Source: Octopus vulgaris
Lineage: Eukaryota
Reading direction: 5' to 3'
Length of the DNA: 64,000 bases
NCBI GenBank assembly: GCA_951406725.2
Contig: OX597836.1
Location: 49,352,001 to 49,416,000 of the forward strand
The position numbers and the translations under genes are program-made. This document shows, piece after piece, positions 3,833 through 63,411 of this stretch. The notes below the pieces were generated by a model. It had not been told where the DNA came from, did no database searches, and saw nothing but the letters and a program-made list of their open reading frames with translations. Position 1 is the stretch's first letter. Each line of letters starts with the position of its first letter.

Positions 3833-4378
3833 TAGCGTCCGTTTTCCATGCTAGCATGGGTTGGACGGTTCAACTGGGGTCTGGGGAGCCCGAAGGCTGC
3901 ACCAGGCCAGTCAGATCTGGCAGTGTTTCTACAGCTGGATGCCCTTCCTAACGCCAACCACTCCGAGAGTGTAGTGGGTGATTTTATGTGCCACCGACAC
4001 AGGTGCCAGACGAGGCTGGCGAACGGCCACGCTCAGATGGTGTTTTTATGTGCCACTGACACAGGTGCCAGACGAGGCTGGCAGACGGCCACGCTCGGAT
4101 GGTGTTTTTATGGGCCACGCTCGGATGGTGTTTTTATGTGCCACCGACACAGGTGCCAGACGAGGCTGGCAGACGGCCACGCTCGGATGGTGTTTTTATG
4201 TGCCACCGCCACAGGTGCCAGATGAGGCTGGCGGACGGCCACGATCGGATGGTGTTTGTTACGTCCCCAAAGCACGGAGGCCAGTCTATGCGGTACTGGC
4301 TACGGCCACGTTTGGATGATTTTCTTGTGTGCCACCGGCACTGGTACCACAAAGATACAAATTCCATTGATGTTCATC
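3833..4378 (-). mobile_element. SINE family S3 with an RTE-like 3' end and (GAT)n tail
   Basis: Minus strand ends ...gttggcgttaggaagggcatccagctgtagaaa...ccaacccatgctagcatggaaaacggacgctaaa(tga)n; homologous to 13462-13812 and fragments near 6510, 7240 and 29300. Confidence 0.75.
3982..4260. repeat. 62-bp GC-rich tandem repeat (4 units plus a 26-bp partial unit) inside SINE S3
   Basis: Unit ttttatgtgccaccgacacaggtgccagacgaggctggcagacggccacgctcggatggtgt; the atg recurs at 3986, 4048, 4110, 4136 and 4198. Confidence 0.9.
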
Positions 4379-15060: not shown

Positions 15061-15165
15061 TATGTGCCTAGTGTACCCTTATCATATGAGTAGTCATGAT
15101 GGATATATTGGGCTTCGTATATTTTACCCCAGTTCACTTTGATGACATACACTGCTCTCTCACTC

Positions 15166-26494: not shown

Positions 26495-27380
26495 GCATTT
26501 GCGTGTTTGCTTGTGTATGTGTGTGTTTGCTTGTGTTTGTGTGTGTGTTTGCGTGTGTTTGTGTGTGTGTTTGCTTGTGTTTGTGTGTGTGTTTGCTTGT
26601 GTTTGTGTGTGTGTTTGCTTGTGTTTGTGTGTGTGTTTGCTTGTGTTTGTGTGTGTGTGTGCTTGTGTTTGTGTGTGTGTTTGCTTGTGTTTGTGTGTGT
26701 GTTTGCTTGTGTTTGTGTGTGTGTTTGCTTGTGTTTGTGTGTGTGTTTGCTTGTGTTTGTGTGTGTGTGCTTGTGTTTGTGTGTGTGTTTGCTTGTGTTT
26801 GTGTGTGTGTGTGCTTGTGTTTGTGTGTGTGTTTGCTTGTGTTTGTGTGTGTGTTTGCTTGTGTTTGTGTGTGTGTTTGCTTGTGTTTGTGTGTGTGTGT
26901 GCTTGTGTTTGTGTGTGTGTGCTTGTGTTTGTGTGTGTGTTTGCTTGTGTTTGTGTGTGTGTTTGCTTGTGTTTGTGTGTGTGTTTGCTTGTGTTTGTGT
27001 GTGTGTGTGCTTGTGTTTGTGTGTGTGTGTGCTTGTGTTTGTGTGTGTGTTTGCTTGTGTTTGTGTGTGTGTTTGCTTGTGTTTGTGTGTGTGTTTGCTT
27101 GTGTTTGTGTGTGTGTGTGCTTGTGTTTGTGTGTGTGTGTGCTTGTGTTTGTGTGTGTGTTTGCTTGTGTTTGTGTGTGTGTGTGCTTGTGTTTGTGTGT
27201 GTGTTTGCTTGTGTTTGTGTGTGTGTTTGCTTGTGTTTGTGTGTGTGTTTGCTTGTGTTTGTGTGTGTGTTTGCTTGTGTTTGTGTGTGTGTGTGCTTGT
27301 GTTTGTGTGTGTGTTTGCTTGTGTTTGTGTGTGTGTTTGCTTGTGTTTGTGTGTGTGTTTGCTTGTGTTTGTGTGTGTGT
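26495..27380. repeat. 22-bp GT-derived minisatellite, ~40 units
   Basis: Unit gcttgtgtttgtgtgtgtgttt, with gtgt/gttt and 20-bp variants. Confidence 0.95.
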
Positions 27381-36785: not shown

Positions 36786-37172
36786 GGGTTTAATTCATTG
36801 AGTAAGTCCTATGGTTTGTTGACCGTTAAGTTCCAAAGTCATACAAATCCAGGCGGTATTTTGGATGAGGTATTCATATTGTAAATGTGTATAGAGAGCG
36901 AGAACATAAGATAGGCACAGATGTGTTTTGTGACTGGGTGTGTATAGGAGAGAGAGGGGGGAGAAAGAGAGAGAGAGGAGAAAGGAATGGAAATAAGATA
37001 GGGGTAGAAGGGTAAGAATAAGGATAAAAATAAAATAAAAGTAAAAGGTAACACATACATAAACATACACACATACAGACACCCATAAGCACATATATAT
37101 ATATATACATGCATACATACATACATACATACATACATACATACATACATACATACATACATACATACATAC

Positions 37173-40100
37173 ATTTTATTTATGGCTGCCCCCTCGTTAT
37201 CGAGTATGGCCATTGCACGACGCTTAACTGTTACTGGTGCTGTGATCGAATGTGACTTTTTAGCCCAGCTAAAGGTACAAAATTGACAACTAAAACCTTT
37301 ACCGGTAATAGCTGGCTGTAGTTGTAACTGGGCTTCTAGTACCTTTGCATGTCGTTTAAGTCCTCCTGCCGAATTACACTCTCTTCTACATGCCCGACAG
37401 ATATGATTAGTATGGTGTGTTACACCACCACCAGTGGCCAGGTTGTCACTCATCTGTCTCGTTTTATGACTACGAAGATGACTCATGAGTCCAGCTTTAC
37501 TGAGGCAGGGTCTTGCACAGACATTGCATGTCAGAATCAAAGGAAGACCCTTCCCTTCTGGAAGTGTAACAGCGATGCCCTTACTGACATCCCTCCTTAC
37601 TTTCTCATGTTCAACTCGAGATTTCTCAACCGTGGCTGTCCCCTCATGAACAATCCTTCTCCACCTGCTACGATCAATAGCTATGTCTTCCCATGTGTCA
37701 GGAGAGATGCAAGCATCTCTTAAGGAAGCCTTCAGCAAGTCCTTATACCTCTTTTTTGGTTTATGTGGAGGTCGTTCTCCTTTGGCCATAAAAGAGTTGT
37801 TTTGGCAACCTTGAATCCTTCATTCTGACCAGATGACCACTCCATCTGAAGAGCTTCTATACTTTAACACCGAGAGCCTTCGAGTATTTCAAGATCACTG
37901 ATGCGGTCCTTCCACTTAATGCTATAGATCCGTCTGAGGCACATCTGATGGAAACGTTCCAGTTGTTTAAGGTGGTATCGATATGTGACGCACGTCTCGC
38001 AGGCATAGAGAAGAGAAGGGAGCACACATGCCTTGTACACCTTTATCTTTGTCTTTCTGCATATATCTCGCCGACTCCAGAGGCGCTTTTCTAGCCTTCC
38101 GAAAGCAACATTTGCTTTCCTAATTCTATATGGAATTTCATCATCCACATTGCCATATCTATTAATAGTACTTCCCAGGTAGACAAACTGATCAACTACA
38201 TCAAGTCGTTTACTATACATATAGATATTTGGTACACTATACTGCTTACCAGGGGCAGGTTGATGCATGACAACAGTTTTCTTGAGATTGACTGTCAATC
38301 CTAAGGCAGTGCAAGCATCAGAGAATGCATTCAAAATGTATTGCATATCAATCTCTGTGTGTGCTACTAGCTCACAATCATCAGCATACAAAAGGTCTCT
38401 TATGATAGAGGTAAATATCTTTGTTTTTGCAGCAAGACGCCTGATATTAGGTATGCTGCCAGAGGTTTGATAATGGATGTAAACACCGTATCTGCAGTTT
38501 CTGAATGCAATACAGAACACCATCGCGAAATATATGGAAAATAGGATCGGTGCCAGAATATCGCCCTGTTTCACTCCATTTTGTATTGAAATGGGCTCCG
38601 ACATCTTCCCTCTAACATTCATCCTACTATTCAAGTCTTCATGAAAAGACCTAACCAAAGCAAGGAACTTTTCAGGACACCCAAGTTTCTGGAGGACTTT
38701 CCACAATGCTTTTCTATTGACGGTATCAAAGGCTTTTGTCAGATCGGCAAACACCTGATACAAATCCAGACCCTGTTCCACACTCTTTTCCTGAAGCTGT
38801 CTAGCTGAAAAGATCATATCAGCAGTGCCACATCCCACATGAAAGCCAGATTGACTTTCTGGAAGAACACAATCTGCAATGTATTTCAGCAGACGATCCA
38901 GAAGTATCCTGCATAAAACCTTTCCTACAGCAGACAGCAATGATACTCCCCTATAATTACCTCAATCATTCCTGTTGCCCTTTCACTTATACAGGACCAC
39001 CATCACTGCATTTCTCTGGTCCTCAGGTACAAATTCACTAGTCCATATCTTACCAAACAAAGAGTGAAGTTTCTGCAGAAGTTTCTCACCACCATACTGT
39101 AACAACTCCGCATGTATGCCATCCATACCCGGAGACTTCCCATTATTCAACCTTGAGACAGCCATTGCAACTTCTTCAAACTTTGGTGGTTCTGCGAGTG
39201 CTGCCTTCACAGGTAATCCAGGGATGAGATTGAGAACATTCTCACTAACTACAGACTGCTGATTCAAAAGTTCATCAAAGTGTTCTTGCCACCTTCGCAG
39301 AATTCCTTGTGAATCACGAAGAAGTTCTTTACCATCCCTGCTTCGAAGTGGTGTCAACAGGGAAGATGTCGGTCCATAAACTTCTCGCAAGAGACCATAC
39401 AACAGCTTTGTGTTATTGGAATCTGATGCCGCCTGTATCTCATCAGCCTTCTTACTCCGCCACGTATCCCTCATCTGAGAGAGCCTTTGCCTCACACGTG
39501 ATTTTACGTCTTCGAATTCCCTATGCAACACTTCCCTTTCCTGTGACTTTGCTGACAAATAGCGTGACAAAGTACGTCTTTTATCAGCCAATAAATCATC
39601 TTTATGTTCATCATTTTCTTTGAACCAATCTTGATGCTTTCTTTGTATCAATCCCAGAACTTTCTTGCCTATATCATAAATTGACTTTTTAAGGGTCGGC
39701 CAATCCTCCCCAATATCTGCAGCATTCATTTCCTCTCGTAAAGTTCTCTTCACACTATTATACCTAAGACGATCAACATTCAGTCTTTTAGGCAGGGTCA
39801 TCCCTGCAGCTCGGATTTTATGTTTTGTGACTAATTTCACTTTTGCACGTACTAGGAGGTGGTCAGTCCAACACTCAGCTCCACGAAGAACACGAACACA
39901 CTGCACATCCTGTCTGTCACGCACCCTAACTAGGATGTAATCCAGAATATGCCATTCTTTAGATGCAGGGTGCATCCATGTAGTCTTAAGCTTATTCTTT
40001 TGTTGAAACATGGTATTGGTAACACACAGACTTAGCTCCTCACACATCTGCAACAAAAGCATGCCATTACTATTACACTTCCCCACCCCATGCTTTCCAA

Positions 40101-41388
40101 TTACAGTCCATGTGTTAAAATCCCTACCCACTCTAGCATTAAAGTCACCTAGTAGGATGACTTGGTCTGCCCGAGGGATATTTCTTATAATGCCCTTCAA
40201 AGCATGGTAGAAAGAAAGTTGTTCGTCATCAGTATAGCACATAGTTGGAGCATACACACTCACCAAGGTCAAATAATTTCCTTTAGCCAAAGGAATTCTC
40301 ATGGACATAAGACGCTCATTAATTCCGACTGGGAATTCTTCAAACTTGTCCACAAGAGTAGTCTTAACAGCAAATGCCACTCCAGCTTCTCCTCTAAGCT
40401 TTTCATCTCTCCCTTTCCAAAAGAATGTATATTTTCCACAAGATTCTGTAAGATGACCATCTCCAGGTAATCTCGTCTCAGATAAAGCAACGATGTCAAG
40501 ATCATAGCGATGAAGCTCCTTCGCAACAAGCGCAGTCCTTCTTTCAGGACATTCAGAGGACTTGTGGTCAAGCAGTATCCGTACATTCCAACAGCCAATA
40601 TTCATTAATTTCTTTGGTTCTATCACAGTAGCATGATGACGGCCGGGTTCAGCTTGTGACGCTCTGGAGCCCCTGCCGGGCCAGACTCTTTCAGCTAATG
40701 TGGTTCCAGAGTCCTTACTGCCATTTATTTTTATACTGTTTTGGTACATCATTGATTTTTGCTTTTTAAGGCTACGGTCAGCCATTCATTTGAGACTCAC
40801 AGCACTATCAACAATCATGAATTAGTTAATCACTTTAATCAATCCAATGTAGTTATCGTGCAATACCTGTGCAAAAATATTTTTTTTTAAGTGAGGAAAG
40901 ACTGTGCACTGAGTCAATCCCACTCACTAAGCAACAGCAACCATAATCCGAAAAGAAGAACAAGTCAACATCATCGGTAACCACTGAGCCGCAGGTTTTA
41001 TGTCGGAGTTATCCCAGTTACCTGAGTTACTTTCTCCTAGAAGGATACCCTAACAAAGGCTAAGAGTCCTTCACTCCCAATGGTTTAACCGCGCGTTCGG
41101 GTATTCAGTCCGATTATTTCTATGTCCCCGCGCATGATACAGCCTTAAGCCTTAAGGGAAAAAAAAAAGAAAAGAAAGAAAAAAAACATTTATTGGATGG
41201 CCGTTGACTCTCAAGAGTTCCTCCGTCCTTTGACGGGTTTTGTTTTTCATCCCGCAGGGTGTCCAATAAACACCCTCCTCACCAAGCAAGCTTGGTGGGG
41301 TTACCGGTTTAGTCGCCGACGACCCGACCATGCAACAGGTTGTACTGGGTTACATGTTACCAGTAGCACTCGAAAGTGCCCTGACATA
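37173..41388 (-). mobile_element. Near-full-length RTE-clade (BovB-like) LINE, inactivated
   Basis: Single APE-RT ORF, ~600-bp 5' UTR with a ctcttagcctttgttagggtatccttctaggagaaag motif, very short 3' UTR running into (TATG)n. Confidence 0.9.
37200..40785 (-). pseudogene. RTE APE endonuclease-reverse transcriptase polyprotein, disrupted
   Basis: IGCWNVR, ALSETR, LGDFNARVG, LDYILV, TDH, DLTKAFDTV, GVKQGD, LLYADD, C-terminal CxxC..H...H. Two in-frame TGA near 38985 and 38965, plus a stop/deletion near 37864. Confidence 0.92.
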
Positions 41389-41853
41389 CAAAAAAATACA
41401 GTTATATGTACAATCAAAAGATGTAAGGAAACAATGGTTGGTGAAGAAGAAAGTATGATTTAAATTCGCTTTGTGTATATATTTGTGTGCGGTGCGTGCT
41501 GATATATAAAACTGTGTGTATGGGTTTTCTAGAAAAAACTGTGTGTATGGTTTTTCTAGAATTCGGGATGTACTTTCAGATATCTTTACGAAGTAGAATG
41601 TCGTGTTTTCGATCTTGGTTGCTACACATGGTAACACAGATTTACGACAAGGAGACACATTTATTCTCTTTTTGTAGAATCATTAAAGGTACTGTTACAA
41701 TATCCAAGGAATGTATGTATATATATATATATATACAGATACTTATCTAGTTTTTCCAAAGAGATGGGTATTTCCGAGGCAGTGGAAGATTTTGAACTTC
41801 TTTTCAAGTTAAAGTGATACCTACATACATACATACATACATACATACATACA

Positions 41854-46649: not shown

Positions 46650-47035
46650 CATCTATTTTTGTCGCCCACTATTCATAGGAAAGTCGTGCGGTTAGAATCC
46701 CCAGCTACCTCCTCTATATATGGCCCTTGATCAGAAGCAAGCGACATTCTGGCTGGATTCCCAAGCATGACCAACAGAAACTATTCACATTATCCAGCCA
46801 TCTTATGCTTTGGTCTACCCCTTGGTCATCTTTGGTCTACCCCTTGTTCATCTTTGGTCTACCCCTTGCTCATCTTTGGTCTACCCCTTGGTCATCTTTG
46901 GTCTACCCCTTGGTCAGCTTTGGTCTACCCCTTGGTCATCTTGGATCTACCCCTTGGTCACCTTGGGTCTACACCTTGGTCATCTTGGGTCTACCAGATT
47001 GAACGATTCATCTTGAGATTCTTTCCTTAGACATT
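46650..47035 (-). mobile_element. RTE 3' stub
   Basis: Minus strand SKERISR*I...RPRGRP..RWLDNV, ending in a gatggatgg tail. Confidence 0.6.
46809..46995. repeat. 22-bp tandem repeat, ~8.5 units
   Basis: Unit tttggtctaccccttggtcatc at 46809, 46831, 46853 and onward. Confidence 0.95.
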
Positions 47036-52524: not shown

Positions 52525-52967
52525 GAGTGAGAGAGCAGTTCATGCCATCAAAGTGACACTGGGGTAAAATATACGAAGCCCAGTATACCCATCATGACTA
52601 CCCGTCTGATAAAGGCACACCAGGCACATGCATCACAACCATATGTGCGCGACATGGTGATCTCACATCAAGATAAACAGCACATGACCTTGCAGGTGGG
52701 GCCCAGTTAGAATTTTCTTCAGGTTGAGTAGTCCATCCTGCTCAAAAGGTCCCTGAATAAGGGTTGCTTTAGGATGTTGAACGAAACACCTATGTTTCCA
52801 GAGGTGAATTATTCAAACCCCAAAGAATCCCTCTCAACACATGGCCATGATGCTCCCCCACTACTTCTGCTCGTGATCAGAAATGCACATATCGTCAGCC
52901 ACTAAGGGACATGCTCAACTGGTTAAGGCCAAACAACTGACAAGCAAATCTGTGGTATTGAGCAGAA

Positions 52968-53022: not shown

Positions 53023-53362
53023 GTTTTTTCCTTCTTTCTTCAAATTTTCTTCCGTTTCTCGCCGAGTGTTTTCCACATACCTAGGGCAGAGAAGCTCATT
53101 GTATGCATTTCCAGATTACACAGGCAAATTCACAAATAAAATATGTATTTAAATATTTAATAAATAAATAAATTCATGGATGGATGTTGTTTTCACAGCG
53201 ATAATGTTCTTCTCAGTACAAGAGCCGTTCCAGTTAATACGATTTTTTGCACTTCCTGTAGGGATGGTTGACCTGGAATCATTTTTAAATAGGTTTCAGT
53301 ACCTTTTTTTATCATTCCTAGAGATCCTATAATCACTGGTACTGTAGTCGCCTTGAGATGCT
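53021..53362 (-). mobile_element. R4/Dong 3' fragment (Dong-B)
   Basis: Minus strand HLKATTVPVIIGSLGMIKKG...QEVQKIVLTGTALVLRRTLSL*, then a 3' UTR and (TAA)n. Confidence 0.85.
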
Positions 53363-53403: not shown

Positions 53404-54178
53404 GAGTGAGAGAGCAGTTCATGCCATCAAAGTGACACTGGGGTAAAATATACGAAGCCCAGTATACCCATCATGACTACCCGTCTGATAAAGGCACACC
53501 AGGCACATGCATCACAACCATATGTGCGCGACATGGTGATCTCATATCAAGATAAACAGCACATGACCTTGCAGGTGGAGCCCAGTTAGAATTTTCTTCA
53601 GATCGAGTAACCCATCCTGCTCAAAAGGTCCCTGAATAAGGCTTGCTTTAAGGATGTTGAACGAAACACCTATGTTTTCAGAGGTGAATTATTCAAACCC
53701 CAAAGAATCCTTCTCAACACATGGCCATGATGCTCCCCCACTACTTCTGCTCGTGATCAGAGATGCACATATCGTCAGCCACTAAGGGACATGCTCAACT
53801 GGTTAAGGCCAAACAACTGACAAGCAAATCTGTGGTATTGAGCAGAATATTTGCTGTTTCTTCAAATTTTCTTCCGCTCCATCTTTTCCATACCAAGGAC
53901 AAAACAATGTACATAATAACACTTCCAATCAGTTAAGATCAGAAGCCATGAGAGCCACTGCCTGGTACTGCATAGCCATGAGAGCCACTGCCTGGTACTG
54001 CATAGCCATGAGAGCCACTGCCTGGTACTGCATAGCCACTGCCTGGTACTGCATAGCCACTGCCTGGTACTGCATAGCCACTGCCTGGTACTGCATAGCC
54101 ACTGCCTGGTACTGCATAGCCACTGCCTGGTACTGCATAGCCACTGCCTGGTACTGCATAGCCACTGCCTGGTACTGC

Positions 54179-54180
<2 letters not shown>
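53404..54180 (-). mobile_element. Element A copy 2 with reiterated 5' end
   Basis: Full ~570-bp body plus tandem copies of its terminus; (TTA)n on both sides. Confidence 0.85.
53944..54180. repeat. 3 x 30-bp plus 7 x 21-bp tandem array
   Basis: agccatgagagccactgcctggtactgcat x3, then agccactgcctggtactgcat x7. Confidence 0.97.
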
Positions 54181-54239
<59 letters not shown>

Positions 54240-54242
<3 letters not shown>

Positions 54243-55960
54243 TAGTTTTATTTTTATATCGTGCTTTCACTTCACTACCGAGCGCAGCTCTGTGTGCCTT
54301 GTGTATGTGCTGTGATTTGTTGTGATGCTCTGATGGTTATTGTATGGAAAGTGTTCTGCGTAGGATGTGTGCAGTGCCTAGTAGTGCAATTTTCTGTATG
54401 TAATATGTGTTTGTAAGTCCTGGTGTTTTTGTTATGTATTTGTCTGAATATTTTTTTATCATACCTAATGCACCTACTATGATAGGAATTGTTTCTGTTT
54501 TCAGATTCCACATTCTAGTTACCTCTATTTCCAGGTCTTTGTATTTTGAGAGTTTCTCCATTTCTTTTAGAGACACGTTGTCATCAGCCGGTATTGATAC
54601 TTCAATTAGAAAGAATTTTTTATCTTCATGATCTCTGACAACTATATCTGGTCTGTTGGCCTTAATTTCTCTATCTGTGTGTATCGGCATATCCCAGAGT
54701 ATGGTTGCTTTCTCGTTTTCTGTGACCTTTTCTGGTGTGTGCCTATACCATCTTTTTTCTGTTGTTATTCCATAATGTTGGCATAGCTTCCAATGTATGT
54801 AGGTTCCAACTCTGTCATGTCTGTGAATATATTCCTTCTTAGCCAGGACTGGGCAGCTAGAGATAATATGATTTATTGTTTCTTGTCCATCTCCACATAT
54901 TCTGCAGTTACTTGTAATATTTCTTTTCATTACATGTTTTTGGTAATTTCTGGTGGGGAGGCTTTGGTCTTGTGCTGCAATTAAAAATCCCTCTGTCTCT
55001 GCTTTGAGTCCTGAGCTTCTCAACCATTGCTGGGATTTTTCTTTGTCTATTTCTTTTGCGTTTAGTTTAGTCCAGTATTTACCATGAAGGGGTTTTTCTT
55101 GCCATCGTTTTATCATGGTTCGTTGCTGTTCTATTTTTAGTTTGGATTCATTTGTTTTATAGCTTTTGTTGTTTCTTCATCTTCTTCTTCTTCTTCATGT
55201 TTATTAGGTGGTATGATTTCTTGTTTGTATTTGTCAGCTTCCTTAAATACTGAGAACAGTTTTTTGTTTTGCTCGTGTTTTGCCGCTATCTGGATTAGTT
55301 TTCCTTCCTTCTGAAATAGATATTTTTGCAGTCCTATGGTGGTTATTTTATAGTAGTTTTCCAGCTGTATAAGGCCTCTACCACCTTCTATACGTTGTAT
55401 ATATAGTCTTTCTATGTCAGATTTTGGGTGATGCATCCTAGATCCTGTCATTATTTTTCTTGTTTTCCTATCTATTTTGGTCAGTTCATTTCGTGTCCAG
55501 TTAAGGATATTGTAGCTGTAACTTATAACTGGGACAGCTAAAGTGTTGATACCTATTATCTTGTTTTTAGCATTGAGCTCTGTGTTTAGTATTGATCTAA
55601 CTCGTCTATAATATTCTTTTTTTATTTTCTCTTTCATTTGTGTGTGTTGTGTCTTATCTAGTTCATGGATTCCTAAGTATTTGTAAGTTTGGTTTTGGTC
55701 TAATTCTTTTATTTCATTGGTTTTATCTAGTGTGATGTTGTTACTCTTAACTAGTTTTCCTCTTTTCATGGTTACTTTGGCGCATTTTTCTAATCCAAAT
55801 TTCTAATCTATTTCTTTGGTAAATCCATGAACTGTCTTTAATAGTGTTTCCAGCTGTTTGTCATTTGCAGCGTATAGTTTTAGGTCATCCATATATAAAA
55901 GGTGGCTGATCGTTTTGCCGTAACATTTATATCCGCATCCAGTTCTATTTAGCATATCAG

Positions 55961-55961
<1 letters not shown>
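54240..55961 (-). mobile_element. 5'-truncated R4/Dong LINE (Dong-C) in (TAA)n
   Basis: Perfect (TTA)n on both flanks; RT end, CCHC and REL domains; ~100-bp 3' UTR. Confidence 0.92.
54337..55961 (-). pseudogene. Dong RT (from YMDD) with CCHC finger and restriction-like endonuclease; small frameshifts
   Basis: ISHLLYMDDLKLYA, YKYLGI, RLYIQRIEGGRGL, CRICGDGQETINHIISSC, RHD, RPDIVV, LIEVS, KLSKYKDL. Confidence 0.92.
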
Positions 55962-56032
<71 letters not shown>

Positions 56033-56784
56033 GAGTGAAGGAGCAGTGCATGCCATCAAAGTGACACTAGGGTATAAATATACGAAGCCCAATATACCCA
56101 TCATGACTACCCGTCTGATAAGGGTACACCAGGCACATACATCACAATCATATGTACGCAACACGGTGATCTCATATCACGATAAACAGCACATGACCTT
56201 GCAGGTGGGATCCAGTTAGAATTATCTTCAGGTCGAGAAGCCCATCCTGCTCAAATGGCCCCTGAATCAAATTGGTTTAAAGATGGTGAACGAAACACCC
56301 ATGTTTCCAGAGGTGAATTATTCAAGTCCCAAAGAATTCCTCTCAACACATGGATATGATAATATGCCCCCACTACTTCTGCTCGTGATCAGAGATGCAC
56401 ATATCGTCAGTCACTAAGGGATACGTTCAACTGGTTAAGGTCAAACAACTGACAAACAAATCTGTAGTATTGAGCAGAATATTTGCTGTAACCCATCTTT
56501 TATACCAAGACAAAACAATATACATAACACTTCCAATCAGTTAAGATCGGAAGCTATGAGAGCCACTGTCTGGTACTGCATGGCTTCTGATCTTAACTGA
56601 TTGTAAGTGTTATCATGTATATTGTTTTGTCTTGGTATAAAAGATGGACCTCAGCAAATATTCTGCTCAATACTACAGATTTGCTTGTCAGTTGTTTGAC
56701 CTTAACCAGTTGAGCATGTCCGTTAGTGACTGATGATATGTGTATCTCTGATTTCGAGCAGAAGTAGTGGGGAGCATCATAGCC
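56033..56784 (-). mobile_element. Element A copy 3 (56033-56581) plus an inverted copy of its 5' ~200 bp (56579-56784)
   Basis: After ...ggtactgcat the sequence continues ggcttctgatcttaactgatt..., the reverse complement of the preceding DNA back to ~56355. Confidence 0.88.
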
Positions 56785-56924
<140 letters not shown>

Positions 56925-58078: not shown

Positions 58079-59912
58079 ATGTCGAGAAATTTTATTTAGA
58101 ACGCTGGTTGCGTTCTTTTATGGACCAGCATTTTCCTAGTCTGGAAACGCGAGGAGAAAAAAAGAACGTATGCACGCAAAGTGCAAACCTGAATGACGTG
58201 GTAGTGAACGCTGCAACCACTTGCGGTAAGAGCCCTGTCACCACCACCACCACCACCTCCACCACCACCACCACTACCACCACGACCAACATAAATGATA
58301 AAAATGAAACTCACGCGAATACTATTAAGAAAAACAACAACAACAATAAAAATGAACTATCTAATAGTGAAGATGTTAATATAAAAAAAATCAACAACAC
58401 CAGTAAATTTCGCTGACACTGCGTCAGAAGAAGGAAATAGTAACATTTACAAATGAAGAGCTAATAGAAACGAGAACTCTCTTTACAACCCGTGGGCAAG
58501 ATTTAGTGCTGCATACACCTCAACACATAAAGGAACAAATAGAAAATAAGACAATTATATATAAAATTATAAGAAAAAAACAAAAAACAAAATGAACAGA
58601 TTACAAAAACGGATATAGAAAAATGTTTAAAAAGCATAATGAAAAAAGAAAGAATATATAAACTGGGGTCCCCAGTTTAACACAGTGGTGGTCCGCTTCC
58701 CTAACCAGGAAATGGCAAAAGCTCACTCTACCGAGTCTTTGGAAAATGATGATATCAAAATGGTACCTTATTTCAAAGGCAAGAGAGTGAGTAGAATTAC
58801 TATTAAAAATGTACCCCCCCGAGATCCCGAACAAATGGATAACAGGGGCAATCTGTTACCATTTGAAAAAGATCAATATTTTAGAAACAGCCGTGTACCT
58901 AAACGACAATTGGGGTGGAAAAACAATAGTAGTGACCATCCAGATTGAGGGGGCCTCTATCGAGAGCCTACCCGATAGGATCCACCTAGAAAATGGGCAA
59001 AGCCTATATGTTGTGGCAGAAGGCAAGAAGCCTAGATGCTACAACTGTGGCAGCCCAGAGCATTTAATTGCCAAGTGCACTCTGGCACAGAAAAAACAAG
59101 AAAGAACAAATCAGAAAACAAATAAAAAACCCTTGTTGCCAATACCAACACCAACACACTCAATTATGGAACAATGCCAAGAAGAAAAACAACAAACCAG
59201 CAAACAAACCCCAACAACATCACCAAGAAAAGAAACAGTACCAACAAAATCACCGTTGACGACGCAACCAATTTATCATGCTGAACCAAAAGATAGACCC
59301 ACACCAACACCCAGGACGACAATTAAAAAGACAGAAAACAGTGACGAGAAGACAAATTCTACCCCTAACACCATAACAACACAAACACCGCACAAAACAT
59401 CAACAATTTCTATAAGCATACATATTAACACAAATACTTTGCCTTTACCCTCTTCTGATACGTCGGACGACGAAAGTTCGACGGAATGGCAAATAGCCAC
59501 AGGGGGTAAAAGGAAAAGATCAAAAAAGCCCACCAAACAAGGAAGTAAAGCAGGGAGATATTTAACTCCGGACAGCACCCCCCTAGACAATCAAAAAGTC
59601 AATGAACCCGCAAAACCACACACACAACTAACTGCAATAGACACAGACAATAAAAAATTAATGGATTACATTGTATCCAACACGGACATCTGTGAAGATG
59701 ACTTTAAGACAAACAATCATCCGCGCACCACACCACCGAAGCACATAAAAATTGTACACATAACACAAACACAACACCATACACTGAAAACAATATTTCC
59801 AAATGCGGTAGGCGGGTTTCAACGATACCTCTCCAAAAAACTATACAAACACCTCATCAAAGACACTACAAAAGAAGAAGAAAAAAATGAAACTTTCGAA
59901 ATGAGTAAGTGA
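58079..59912 (+). pseudogene. Tx1 ORF1 (gag-like, CCHC knuckle), split by frameshifts
   Basis: SRITIKNVPP/EIPNKW (shift in a C7 run near 58814-58820), CYNCGSPEHLIAKC, T/P/K-rich tail, WQIATGGKRKR. Start position is approximate. Confidence 0.75.
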
Positions 59913-59979
59913 CCTTCCCTCTTGCCTCTTGTCTCTTCCAATGTTTGTGTGTGAAACACAATTTTCGTAAACGTCAATT

Positions 59980-62900
59980 ATGCTTAAATTAGGTTGTGTG
60001 AATGCGCGTGGCTTGGCGTCGGCTTGGAAGCAAGGTTACCTTCTAAACGACATCAAGTCACTGAACGTGGATATAGTAGCTATCAGTGAAACCAGACTCA
60101 GCAAGTCGCGGGCCCTCGCGTCCATGTTTGGCGATCAATTTGACATTTATTTTTCTCCCTGTCTGCCGAACATGGGTGGTGGAGGTACCGTGGTGCTTTT
60201 TCGAAAGAGTCTAAATGTAAAAGTAAGAACAATATTCCTAGATCCGGAGGGTAGGCTGGTTGTCTTGGACGTGGATGGCAGAAATGGGTGTGCATTCCGT
60301 CTGATGGCAGTTTATGCACCGTCCTTAACGGGTCGGGCGGATTTCTTCAGACGTCTAGAGGTTTTCCTGGGTACGTCTAGACCTTTACTGTTAGTAGGGG
60401 ATTGGAACGCTACCTTGGACACGCATCTAGATTATGTGGGAATGGATAGGAATAGAAGGGGGTGTAAGTGCCTCAAAGACCTACTCAGACGTTTCCATTT
60501 GTCTGACAGGTTCCGACTCGACCATCCGAACGTGCCAACGTGGACTTGGACAAACCGCGTCGGATCGTCGAGATCTTATCTAGACAGAATTCTATGCAGG
60601 ACAGCGGATAGGGATAGTGTAGGATGTCCACAATTTAAAATAGTCAGCTACACAGATCACAAATTTGTGACGTGTACGCTCGATTTAGATAAGACACATA
60701 GACAGGGTCCCGGTTACTGGAAACTGAACACGTCGCTCTTAGCGCGACAGGTTTACAGGAACCGGATTAGCGAGTTAATTAAGAGGGCGCTGACGGGAGC
60801 CGTCGTTAACAACCGCTGGTGGTTCGCCCTGAAAATGACAATAAAATCGGAATCAATTAGGTTTAGCAAGGAATTAGCGATAGATCGAAACAGAGTAGAG
60901 GGAGACCTAGTTAAGAAACTAGAAGAGGCACTTACTACTGGCAGCGCAACCAACGCGATGGCTGCGAGGATGGCCCTCGACCAACACCTCAACGCCAAGC
61001 ACGAAGGTTGCGTCGTCAGAGCTAAAATGCGTGCCTTAAGGAACGAAGGGATCGAAGCTGCGCGTGAGGCCCGGGTAGCGGAGGCGCAGCGTGGAAACAG
61101 AGCTACCATTCGGTCTCTAATAGATCAACAGGGATGCAGTTTACTCGAACCTGAAAGGATGCGTGAGGCCTTTCAACAGCACTTTGCTCGATTGTTTGGT
61201 GCGAGTGGTGGGTCGGAACGCGGGATGGATTTCAGTGCCTACCTGACCGACCTGCCGCGGCTCTCGGCAAGAGAAGCGGAGTGTTGTGAAAGTCTCATCA
61301 CAGCCGCTGACGTGCGGGATGCGATGGCGGGCTGCGCGAGGGATAAGTCGCCTGGATTGGATGGTTTACCCTACGAGCTGTATTGTCAAATGCCAGACTT
61401 GTTTGACGACCTCTTGGCATCAGTCTACTGCAACTGGCAACAAAACGGGAGAATTCCCGGTTTCGTGAGCCGAGGTGCAGTGACGTTGCTGAAGAAAGAC
61501 CCAAACAAGGGGAATTTTATAGATAATTTCAGGCCCATCACTCGGCTCAATGCAGATTTGAAAATTTTGGCCAAAGTAATAGCCGAGAGGTTGGCGCTTG
61601 TCATTGGTAAACTGGTCGACAGGGCGCAAACATGCGCCGTGCCGGGCAGAACCATACATGACAACCTCCATCTGATGCGCTACATTGTGGACAGGGTAGT
61701 TAAGGATCCTGGCATGGGTGGGGCGCTGATAAATTTGGATCAGTCTAAAGCATTCGATAGGGTCGACCATCGGTACTTGGCGGCCGTCCTCAGGGCGGCT
61801 GGCTTCGGTCCCGTCTTTCGCGGTTGGATCGCTGCCTTGTATAGCGGCATCCGATCGGTGATTCGGGTGAACGGTCACCTGTCGAAACCGTTTGACATCA
61901 CGCGTTCGGTCCGTCAGGGGTGTCCCCTGTCGGCGCTTCTGTATGTATTGACTCTCGAGCCGCTACTGCGGAAGCTGGCGACACTGAGGGGCATCCCACG
62001 GGAACTGGGTTGCGGGACGAGCGTGTCGGCATATGCGGACGATGTCACCGTCATAGTGTCGAGCAACAAACACATCCAGATGATAGGCGAGACACTAAGA
62101 AAATACGAAACGGTGACGGGAGCGAAGATTAACCCGGAAAAGTCAGTGGGTTTGCTACTCGGCACCTGGAGAAGCAAGCCCATGCCGTCCGACTGCGGCT
62201 CAGTAGTGGGACGCTGGACGGACAGACCGGTTAAATTGCTCGGGGTCTGGTTCAGTCCGGACCTCCAAATGGATAAGAACTGGAACCAGATCACGAGTAG
62301 AGTGGTCGCTCTCAGCCAAACATGGGCCGAGAGAAAGCTGTCTCTAAAAGGCCGGGCGGAGGTGGCGAACGCGTACATCGCATCCGTCATCGATTACCGC
62401 CTGACCGTCGTGCCTTGTCCCGACGCCACCATCACCAAACTAGAACGCATACTCTTCCGCTTCCTGTGGAAGGGTGGCGTTCCGATGGTGAGGAAGTCCA
62501 TTTGCTGTCAACATCCGTTGAATGGAGGACTGGGAATGCCGTGGTTGATGATGCGCAGGCATGCGCTGAGACTGCGGCATCTCTGGAACTTCATCGACGA
62601 CGGTGAACAGGTGTGGGCGCCGTTTGTGAGACGCGCCTTCCCGCAGCTCGTCTCACTGACCAAACTGCAAACGTGGATCAAAAAGAGACCGAAACTGGGC
62701 GATTGGCACCGAGAGTGTCGCCAAACTCTACAGCAGCTCTGCCGACCGGGGTCAAACTTGTGCAACTTACAAACGACTAAAGCGTTCTATAGAGGACTAG
62801 TGGAGGGGAGGTCCGACGACACACTCGGGGCAAACCTGGGCGTCGACGAGAAATTCCTAACCCGCCTGTTCAGGACGACGTTCGGGCCGGGGCCTATGGA

Positions 62901-63411
62901 TAACTTCCAGAAATCCCTGGCTTGGCAGTGCTATCGAGACGCACTACCTGTTCGAGAGAAGAGCTACAGACACGGTTCGAAAACCATCACCAGACCGACC
63001 TGCCCGAGATGCGGCCAGAGCGACGAAACCGTTCTGCACGCACTCGTGCAGTGTCCAGATATTTCAGAGCTGTGGACCTTCGTCGAACAGCTGTTGTCAC
63101 GTGTAGGTCGGGCCCGCCTATCGGCCGAGTCTATCGTGAATATTGTTCCACCACCTTCCTTTAAACGGGAAGGGAAAACGGTTTTCGTTACGCTGATGGC
63201 TATGGCGAAAGAATGTGTGTGGTGGACGCGTTTGAAAGGACTGCAAACAAACACCTTCCTCTCTGGTCAGTCTCTCGTCAACTTTTTCAAGTACCACTTG
63301 AAAATGAGGATGAGAATAGAGAGGAAGGCTTTGTCGAACGAATGTTTCAATAAAAAGTGGGTAAAAGTGGCAAAAATGGTCAGTATGAAAGACGACACTA
63401 ACGAGAAGTAA
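59980..63411 (+). CDS. Tx1/L1 ORF2: AP endonuclease, reverse transcriptase and C-terminal zinc finger, 1143 aa, uninterrupted
   Basis: GCVNARGL, ISETR, VYAP, VGDWN, YLDRIL, TDHK, KSPGLDG, DQSKAFDRVDH, VRQGCPLS, AYADD, GGLG, CPRCGQSDETVLHALVQC. Confidence 0.95.
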   Translation: MLKLGCVNARGLASAWKQGYLLNDIKSLNVDIVAISETRLSKSRALASMFGDQFDIYFSPCLPNMGGGGTVVLFRKSLNVKVRTIFLDPEGRLVVLDVDGRNGCAFRLMAVYAPSLTGRADFFRRLEVFLGTSRPLLLVGDWNATLDTHLDYVGMDRNRRGCKCLKDLLRRFHLSDRFRLDHPNVPTWTWTNRVGSSRSYLDRILCRTADRDSVGCPQFKIVSYTDHKFVTCTLDLDKTHRQGPGYWKLNTSLLARQVYRNRISELIKRALTGAVVNNRWWFALKMTIKSESIRFSKELAIDRNRVEGDLVKKLEEALTTGSATNAMAARMALDQHLNAKHEGCVVRAKMRALRNEGIEAAREARVAEAQRGNRATIRSLIDQQGCSLLEPERMREAFQQHFARLFGASGGSERGMDFSAYLTDLPRLSAREAECCESLITAADVRDAMAGCARDKSPGLDGLPYELYCQMPDLFDDLLASVYCNWQQNGRIPGFVSRGAVTLLKKDPNKGNFIDNFRPITRLNADLKILAKVIAERLALVIGKLVDRAQTCAVPGRTIHDNLHLMRYIVDRVVKDPGMGGALINLDQSKAFDRVDHRYLAAVLRAAGFGPVFRGWIAALYSGIRSVIRVNGHLSKPFDITRSVRQGCPLSALLYVLTLEPLLRKLATLRGIPRELGCGTSVSAYADDVTVIVSSNKHIQMIGETLRKYETVTGAKINPEKSVGLLLGTWRSKPMPSDCGSVVGRWTDRPVKLLGVWFSPDLQMDKNWNQITSRVVALSQTWAERKLSLKGRAEVANAYIASVIDYRLTVVPCPDATITKLERILFRFLWKGGVPMVRKSICCQHPLNGGLGMPWLMMRRHALRLRHLWNFIDDGEQVWAPFVRRAFPQLVSLTKLQTWIKKRPKLGDWHRECRQTLQQLCRPGSNLCNLQTTKAFYRGLVEGRSDDTLGANLGVDEKFLTRLFRTTFGPGPMDNFQKSLAWQCYRDALPVREKSYRHGSKTITRPTCPRCGQSDETVLHALVQCPDISELWTFVEQLLSRVGRARLSAESIVNIVPPPSFKREGKTVFVTLMAMAKECVWWTRLKGLQTNTFLSGQSLVNFFKYHLKMRMRIERKALSNECFNKKWVKVAKMVSMKDDTNEK

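Follow-up and report, generated by a model that had tools for sequence, protein, structure and literature searches.

Tandem arrays at the 5' junctions of a TAA-embedded retroposon and a Dong-like LINE in Octopus vulgaris

The locus and its neighbours

The array described here lies in a 64,000-nucleotide stretch of Octopus vulgaris DNA (the window), among copies of two retroelements that are referred to as element A and element B, the latter being a Dong-like LINE. The features at the locus, in window positions, are as follows.

52525-52967, minus strand: element A copy 1, 5'-truncated, with no array
53404-53973, minus strand: element A copy 2, a non-coding TAA-embedded retroposon of ~550 nt, with an intact 3' end at 53404 and a 5' end that stops 8 nt before the usual one
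53974-54033, minus strand: two added 30-nt units, restarting 30 nt from the end of copy 2
54034-54180, minus strand: seven added 21-nt units, restarting at the second AGCCA
54181-54240, no strand: the (TTA)n target repeat, which borders the 5' junction and also serves the Dong-like fragment as its 3' tail
54241-55964, minus strand: Dong/R4-like LINE, 5'-truncated, with the end of the RT, a zinc knuckle and the C-terminal domain (zf-RVT); 98.6% identical to copy L130
56033-56581, minus strand: element A copy 3, older, 90% identical to L004, leaving the element at the same GCAT as the array
56579-56784, plus strand: inverted arm of copy 3, a fold-back of the snap-back type joined via CAT/ATG pairing

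Truncated copies of element A (15063-15165 and 52525-52967) retain the left end; the element is therefore read on the minus strand, with the cDNA running along the plus strand. Copy 2 matches a full copy (L004) at 92% over 548 of 556 nt and has no open frame. As the initial annotation stated, ten perfect units stand at 53944-54180, three of 30 nt and then seven of 21 nt, all starting at AGCCA and ending at GGTACTGCAT; (TTA)n abuts them directly, and GGTACTGCAT is also where copy 3 departs from the element (56572-56581). Since the first 30-mer (53944-53973) is the body end of copy 2 itself, the added units number nine (207 nt).

All nine added-unit junctions are identical, with GCAT followed directly by AGCCA, and the two unit types stand in blocks (chance 0.056). 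This exact junction occurs nine times in the 2.8-Gb genome, every time at this locus. Reversed-pattern controls, for this junction and for the terminal-motif searches described below, returned 0-3 matches, so the pattern is not due to chance. The 21-nt restart is also used at L180, L187 and other loci with the same joining of T to A, which would fit one untemplated A paired with the terminal U. Rfam searches of the array region and of the 5' ends of both families gave sub-threshold matches only.

The end shared by the array and copy 3 had been taken for the 5' terminus of element A, but the actual end lies 8 nt further. Among exact 22-mer matches in the whole genome, 7,542 continue with C towards CAGGGCAT and 511 do not, so that GGTACTGCAT was rejected as the genuine 5' terminus; the element usually ends with CAGGGCAT, with TTA next to it. 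A GCAT stop joined to TTA was found in 15 of 30 copies sampled from the 511. GCAT is a minor truncation point, used by roughly 3% of element A copies, and the neighbouring copies 2 and 3 both stop there. A higher array rate in copies that stop at GCAT was not supported (0/15). One exact 5' junction is shared by 12 of 30 element A copies, and inverted termini are represented by a single case among 168 element A termini scanned, namely copy 3 itself.

Several other features of the window were recorded. Within copy 2, a patch of ~21 nt (53857-53878) equals the start of another TTA-embedded repeat (53034-53057) and replaces four bases, possibly through a mid-body template switch. Just past the inverted arm of copy 3, (TTA)n and (TAA)n meet head to head at ~56859 (within 56785-56922). 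Further tandem arrays are present at 3977-4257 (62/26-nt units), 26503-27380 (22-nt units) and 46808-46995 (22-nt units). A broken APE-RT LINE in three frames occupies 36839-40785 on the minus strand, with a 27-nt duplication upstream at 41508-41561, and a two-ORF L1/Tx1-like element with a 1,146-aa APE-RT frame and (TCTA)n on its flanks occupies 58791-63411 on the plus strand; a 20-mer near the 5' end of the latter is single-copy in the genome and was unusable as a control.

The two families and their arrays

Element A has the properties of a SINE: more than 8,000 exact matches, no ORF, an intact 3' end and 5' truncations. It is flanked on both sides by TAA, the target of the Dong-like LINE, and has the same junction signature as that family, which likely mobilises it. 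A shared 3' end was sought by blastn and tblastx against five near-full-length Dong-like copies, and no similarity was found except to nested copies of element A. With neither 5' nor 3' ends in common, element A was rejected as a part of the LINE or as an internal deletion derivative of the R2 SIDE type. Where element A stands beside Dong tails, as it does in a number of places, this is read as the result of nested insertion into TAA.

Element B carries RVT_1 and zf-RVT domains. The best PDB matches of a longer copy are R2 proteins (residues 27-478, E 5e-17), and many relatives are proteins of ~1,200 aa on contigs of ~4 kb. The layout is that of the clade, with a single ORF containing an RT, a C-terminal zinc knuckle and what we take, by eye, to be a restriction-like endonuclease motif, without an APE domain. 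All 29 young Dong-like loci end in (TTA)n, and most of 26 metagenome relatives sit in (TAA)n. We therefore call the element Dong-like, a Dong/R4-type name that rests on target and domain layout; no named Dong sequence was among the relatives retrieved. Near-full-length copies measure 4.2 kb. Two copies that are 98.6% alike are truncated at one and the same base (window 55964 and L130:2294), where ATT matches the target. In Bombyx, the cut made by the Dong ribozyme coincides with the element end (PMC3774820). An HDV-like ribozyme was sought at the element 5' end, with no Rfam match and none by a custom descriptor, the latter lacking a working positive control. Dong-R4 is reported among the recently active families of O. 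vulgaris, with 1,129 insertions (PMC13282606, PMC9115989), and O. bimaculoides is described as showing no recent Dong activity (PMC9115989).

Arrays like that of copy 2 are widespread in element A. The terminal 5' motif, repeated within 3-30 nt, gave 1,284 matches genome-wide against 3 for the reversed control; unit lengths are bounded by this search pattern and do not form an unbiased distribution. The corresponding 3'-end motif gave 14 matches, and two internal motifs gave 41 and 114, about half of the 114 coming from one locus. Among the A-like internal-control loci examined, 14/21 and 2/9 proved to be arrays lying at the junctions of copies truncated at their 5' end, which implies that an array follows each copy's own cDNA end. 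On contig C1, 92 listed matches fall at 46 places, comprising 43 clear arrays, two sites that are not element A and one unclear site; four of the places (L101, L104-106) are copies of one old event, all with the same array. Scaled from this contig, the genome is estimated to hold ~600 array loci. In unselected element A copies an array was present in 2/59, and a family-blind polarity scan of unselected loci yielded 4/148 versus 0/137, a difference that is weak alone. Heads of tRNA-like SINEs carried an array in 1/34, a small sample.

The initial annotation had asked whether independent loci end their arrays at the same base. Arrays at the 5' end are indeed a family-wide trait, but no other locus has the junction seen here. 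Of 120 inner units in 58 hand-picked arrays of element A, 110 stop no more than 1 nt away from where the copy itself ends (junction statistics refer to 58 of 59 arrays, L139 being left out). Restart sites are nearly fixed inside one locus and differ between loci, with 21 distinct sites among 84 junction types. A short last unit occurs in 10/58 arrays, its start being mostly the restart site of the inner units; no steady shortening of units was found across arrays. At L059, three nested restarts all fall on a single internal base, 131 nt away from the end, and the units shrink from 66 to 25 to 11 nt.

The Dong-like LINE shows the same pattern at a higher rate. Its 5' terminus in repeated form gave 877 matches, against 0 in the control. 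The first 30 of 492 copies found by a motif just inside the end represent 29 independent loci, and 16 of these unselected, young, full-length loci (copies ~98% alike) have arrays, up to 20 and 26 units long; the difference from element A (2/59) is significant (Fisher test, p 5e-8). Periods of 19-28 nt account for 66/75 junctions, although two arrays supply 44 of these. Older truncated copies L216 and L219, among 30 examined, also have arrays, and some unit types recur between loci. In metagenome relatives, mostly truncated short-read contigs, duplicated junctions were found in 0/26, and a pattern scan of metagenomes for terminal repeats gave no matches.

Junctions, a proposed mechanism and its rivals

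That the arrays arise during insertion is well supported, and we consider it highly probable. As to how, we favour on balance the reiteration of first-strand synthesis, in which the element's RT jumps repeatedly, end to end, onto a short 5' piece of the RNA before the cDNA is joined to (TAA)n; a mixture of mechanisms is likely. After first-strand synthesis, host RNase H may leave a 5' RNA piece of 20-30 nt with a free 3' end. The RT would then add 0-2 extra bases, jump onto this piece and copy it to its end, and the cycle would repeat until the target captures the cDNA end. At this locus, the template would have lacked the terminal 8 nt, and the acceptor would have ended at 30 and then at 21 nt, in both cases at ...UGGCU. 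The 5' end of element A RNA likely carries a few TAA bases, so that most copies would anneal at once, which would account for the lower array rate of this family. Some units were probably added later, copied unit from unit. Each cycle would require a hybrid of 20-30 bp to separate, which counts against the model.

RT reiteration is favoured by the restriction of arrays to the 5' side (1,284 versus 14 matches), by the ending of units at the copy's own end (110/120), also at truncation junctions, and by the abundance of arrays in an autonomous LINE (877 versus 0 matches; 16/29 young loci). The Dong-like junctions point the same way. The target TTA repeat was found in 0/75 of them (the TTAAAA of the element itself accounts for four flagged rows); the position of the copied end shifts by one or two bases at a nearly constant restart; and in the two longest arrays the variants follow no order distinguishable from random (p 0.43 and 0.20), as if a short, free-ended template were copied afresh in each cycle. 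The C/CC variation in these arrays could come from homopolymer (read) error. Short last units at inner restart sites fit growth of the cDNA strand, and so does L236/L265 (G000:C1:14.42 Mb), where a Dong-like 5' end is followed by two repeats and then by a 10-nt fold-back, so that reiteration and snap-back occur in one junction. The earlier suggestion that the RT recopied the RNA end holds in that independent loci have 5'-terminal arrays and repeated copying before joining is the best model; it fails in that the copying ends at each copy's own cDNA end, not at the consensus end.

Part of the evidence is at odds with pure RNA copying, and it is here that DNA-templated re-priming, which we regard as a less probable contender, finds its grounds. 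In that explanation, the free 3' end of the target (second strand) and the cDNA end anneal by 1-2 bases, are extended by 15-30 nt, separate and re-anneal, the enzyme being host Pol theta or the element RT acting on DNA. In element A, linkers of at least 3 nt copy the locus's own outer junction in 13/22 cases versus 3.2 in shuffled data (p 0.0002), and 36/51 junction types, with 9.6 expected, show an overlap of 1 nt or more between tail and restart. For full-length copies, the outer-junction linkers could derive from TAA bases with which the RNA begins; TTA-type linkers also occur in truncated copies (L148 and L149 of element A, L216 of Dong), where such bases are not expected in the RNA, and this indicates that target DNA acted as the template at least briefly. 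The units of L284 share a 2-nt loss that is absent from the copy body, and L139 repeats a four-unit block, so that units appear to have been copied from units. The snap-back in copy 3 and L236 also suits re-priming, and Pol theta is known to alternate untemplated, cis and trans extension (PMC4912351). Against it, a target-attached template should often carry junctions into the target repeat, which none of the 75 Dong-like junctions enters; several of these have no microhomology; two families with the same target differ 16-fold in array rate; and tRNA-like SINE heads, a weak control, have an array in 1/34.

A single jump or duplication at insertion, enlarged later by replication slippage or unequal exchange, seems improbable. 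At this locus it may hold: one slip between two AGCCA repeats would turn the 30-mer into the 21-mer, the nine junctions are identical, the unit types stand in blocks, and a single junction type, which counts against RT reiteration here, cannot tell nine jumps from one jump plus slippage. The block repeats in L139 also agree with it, as does L150 (G000:C5:4575079-4577400), where a minisatellite of 28-nt units, matching the motif 53 times, lies inside or between element A copies and is possibly an array that went on growing. Elsewhere, however, many arrays (L120, L167, L177, L179) have junction types several bases different mixed with one another, arrays of up to 26 units are already present in more than half of the young Dong copies, which are ~98% identical, and duplications at the 3' end are nearly absent. 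The initial annotation's remark that slippage may have added units later may hold for this array. Inheritance of arrays from source elements, or rolling-circle reverse transcription of a small circular RNA, is very improbable: some Dong unit types do recur between loci, but this array's junction is found nowhere else in the genome, loci differ in both restart site and number of units, and junctions vary within arrays. A sequencing or assembly artefact beside (TTA)n is hardly credible. The array interior, including its exact junction, lacks cover at 100% likeness in four other runs (X1, X2, X6, X11), an absence that proves nothing and has no bearing either way; the polarity is strictly 5' although (TTA)n abuts both ends, one and the same array is seen in all four copies of an old event, and back-jump joints at the element A end are present in contigs from other studies' runs.

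Comparison with known systems

Telomerase is an RT that extends a DNA 3' end by copying a short stretch of RNA over and over. A broader reading of our data would be that Dong-type RTs add repeats processively in the germline, the RNA 5' tip being used again up to ~25 times per insertion, with most full-length insertions born with a new minisatellite: a telomerase-like reiteration by an R2-like enzyme without a dedicated template. We put this forward tentatively and consider it somewhat less likely than not. The term "telomerase-like" in the initial annotation is loose, as the octopus arrays have no dedicated template or built-in realignment region, the unit and the restart sites vary between loci, and there is no telomeric role; at the joint between GCAT and AGCCA, there is no overlap of the kind that a fixed template with an alignment region provides.

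How the 5' ends of non-LTR elements are joined and second strands primed is still debated (PMC13000458, PMC13486585), and the choice between RT and host polymerase is testable from sequence and a simple in vitro assay. If true, RT reiteration would offer a direct route from retrotransposition to minisatellites and 5' repeats, and it would bear on the R2-type enzymes employed for gene insertion. The available parts of octopus Dong-R4 accounts (PMC13282606, PMC9115989) make no mention of terminal arrays, nor do such arrays appear in those of PMC2718515, PMC13000458, PMC13486585, PMC13580325 and bioRxiv 10.1101/2024.12.14.628481. No description of arrays at this scale was found in the literature searched, most subscription papers and supplements being outside its scope. 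Short versions are already in print at R2 junctions; the scale in octopus is unusual, and novelty is not proven.

Template jumping has been demonstrated in vitro (PMC8857657, PMC10830420) and similarly gives continuous cDNA over separate templates, and hence concatemers; there the templates are added, whereas here the element's own 5' piece is proposed to serve, in the germline. Jumps by the R2 RT need non-templated bases or a 1-2-nt overhang, and template jumping is considered maybe not physiologically necessary (PMC8857657). The 5' junction classes obtained with PRINT (PMC11371274) include snap-back, as in copy 3 and L236, and a join class for truncated cDNAs; the classes set out in the portion of that report available are anneal, join, snap-back, extra template and head-to-tail tandem insertions, short terminal arrays not being among them. 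Templated insertions by Pol theta (PMC4912351) resemble the octopus junctions in using the opposing strand repeatedly, in snap-back and in microhomology, but their tracts are irregular and mixed, with a median of 7 bp in vitro, while the octopus arrays are regular with one fixed end. A further close parallel is R2 itself, which has a related RT and tandem repeats at its 5' junctions, the junctions being uniform when the RNA contains target sequence and variable when it does not (PMC3774820). Tandem duplications of 13-28 nt occur there, and the legend of Fig. 5 lists two or three repeats of the terminal segment (Eickbush et al. 2013, PMC3774820). The R2 repeats consist of 28S target, affect ~5-10% of junctions, mostly with one extra copy, and are read as failed annealing (PMC3774820); in octopus it is element sequence that is repeated, also at truncation points, in 16/29 young LINE copies and in up to 26 units.
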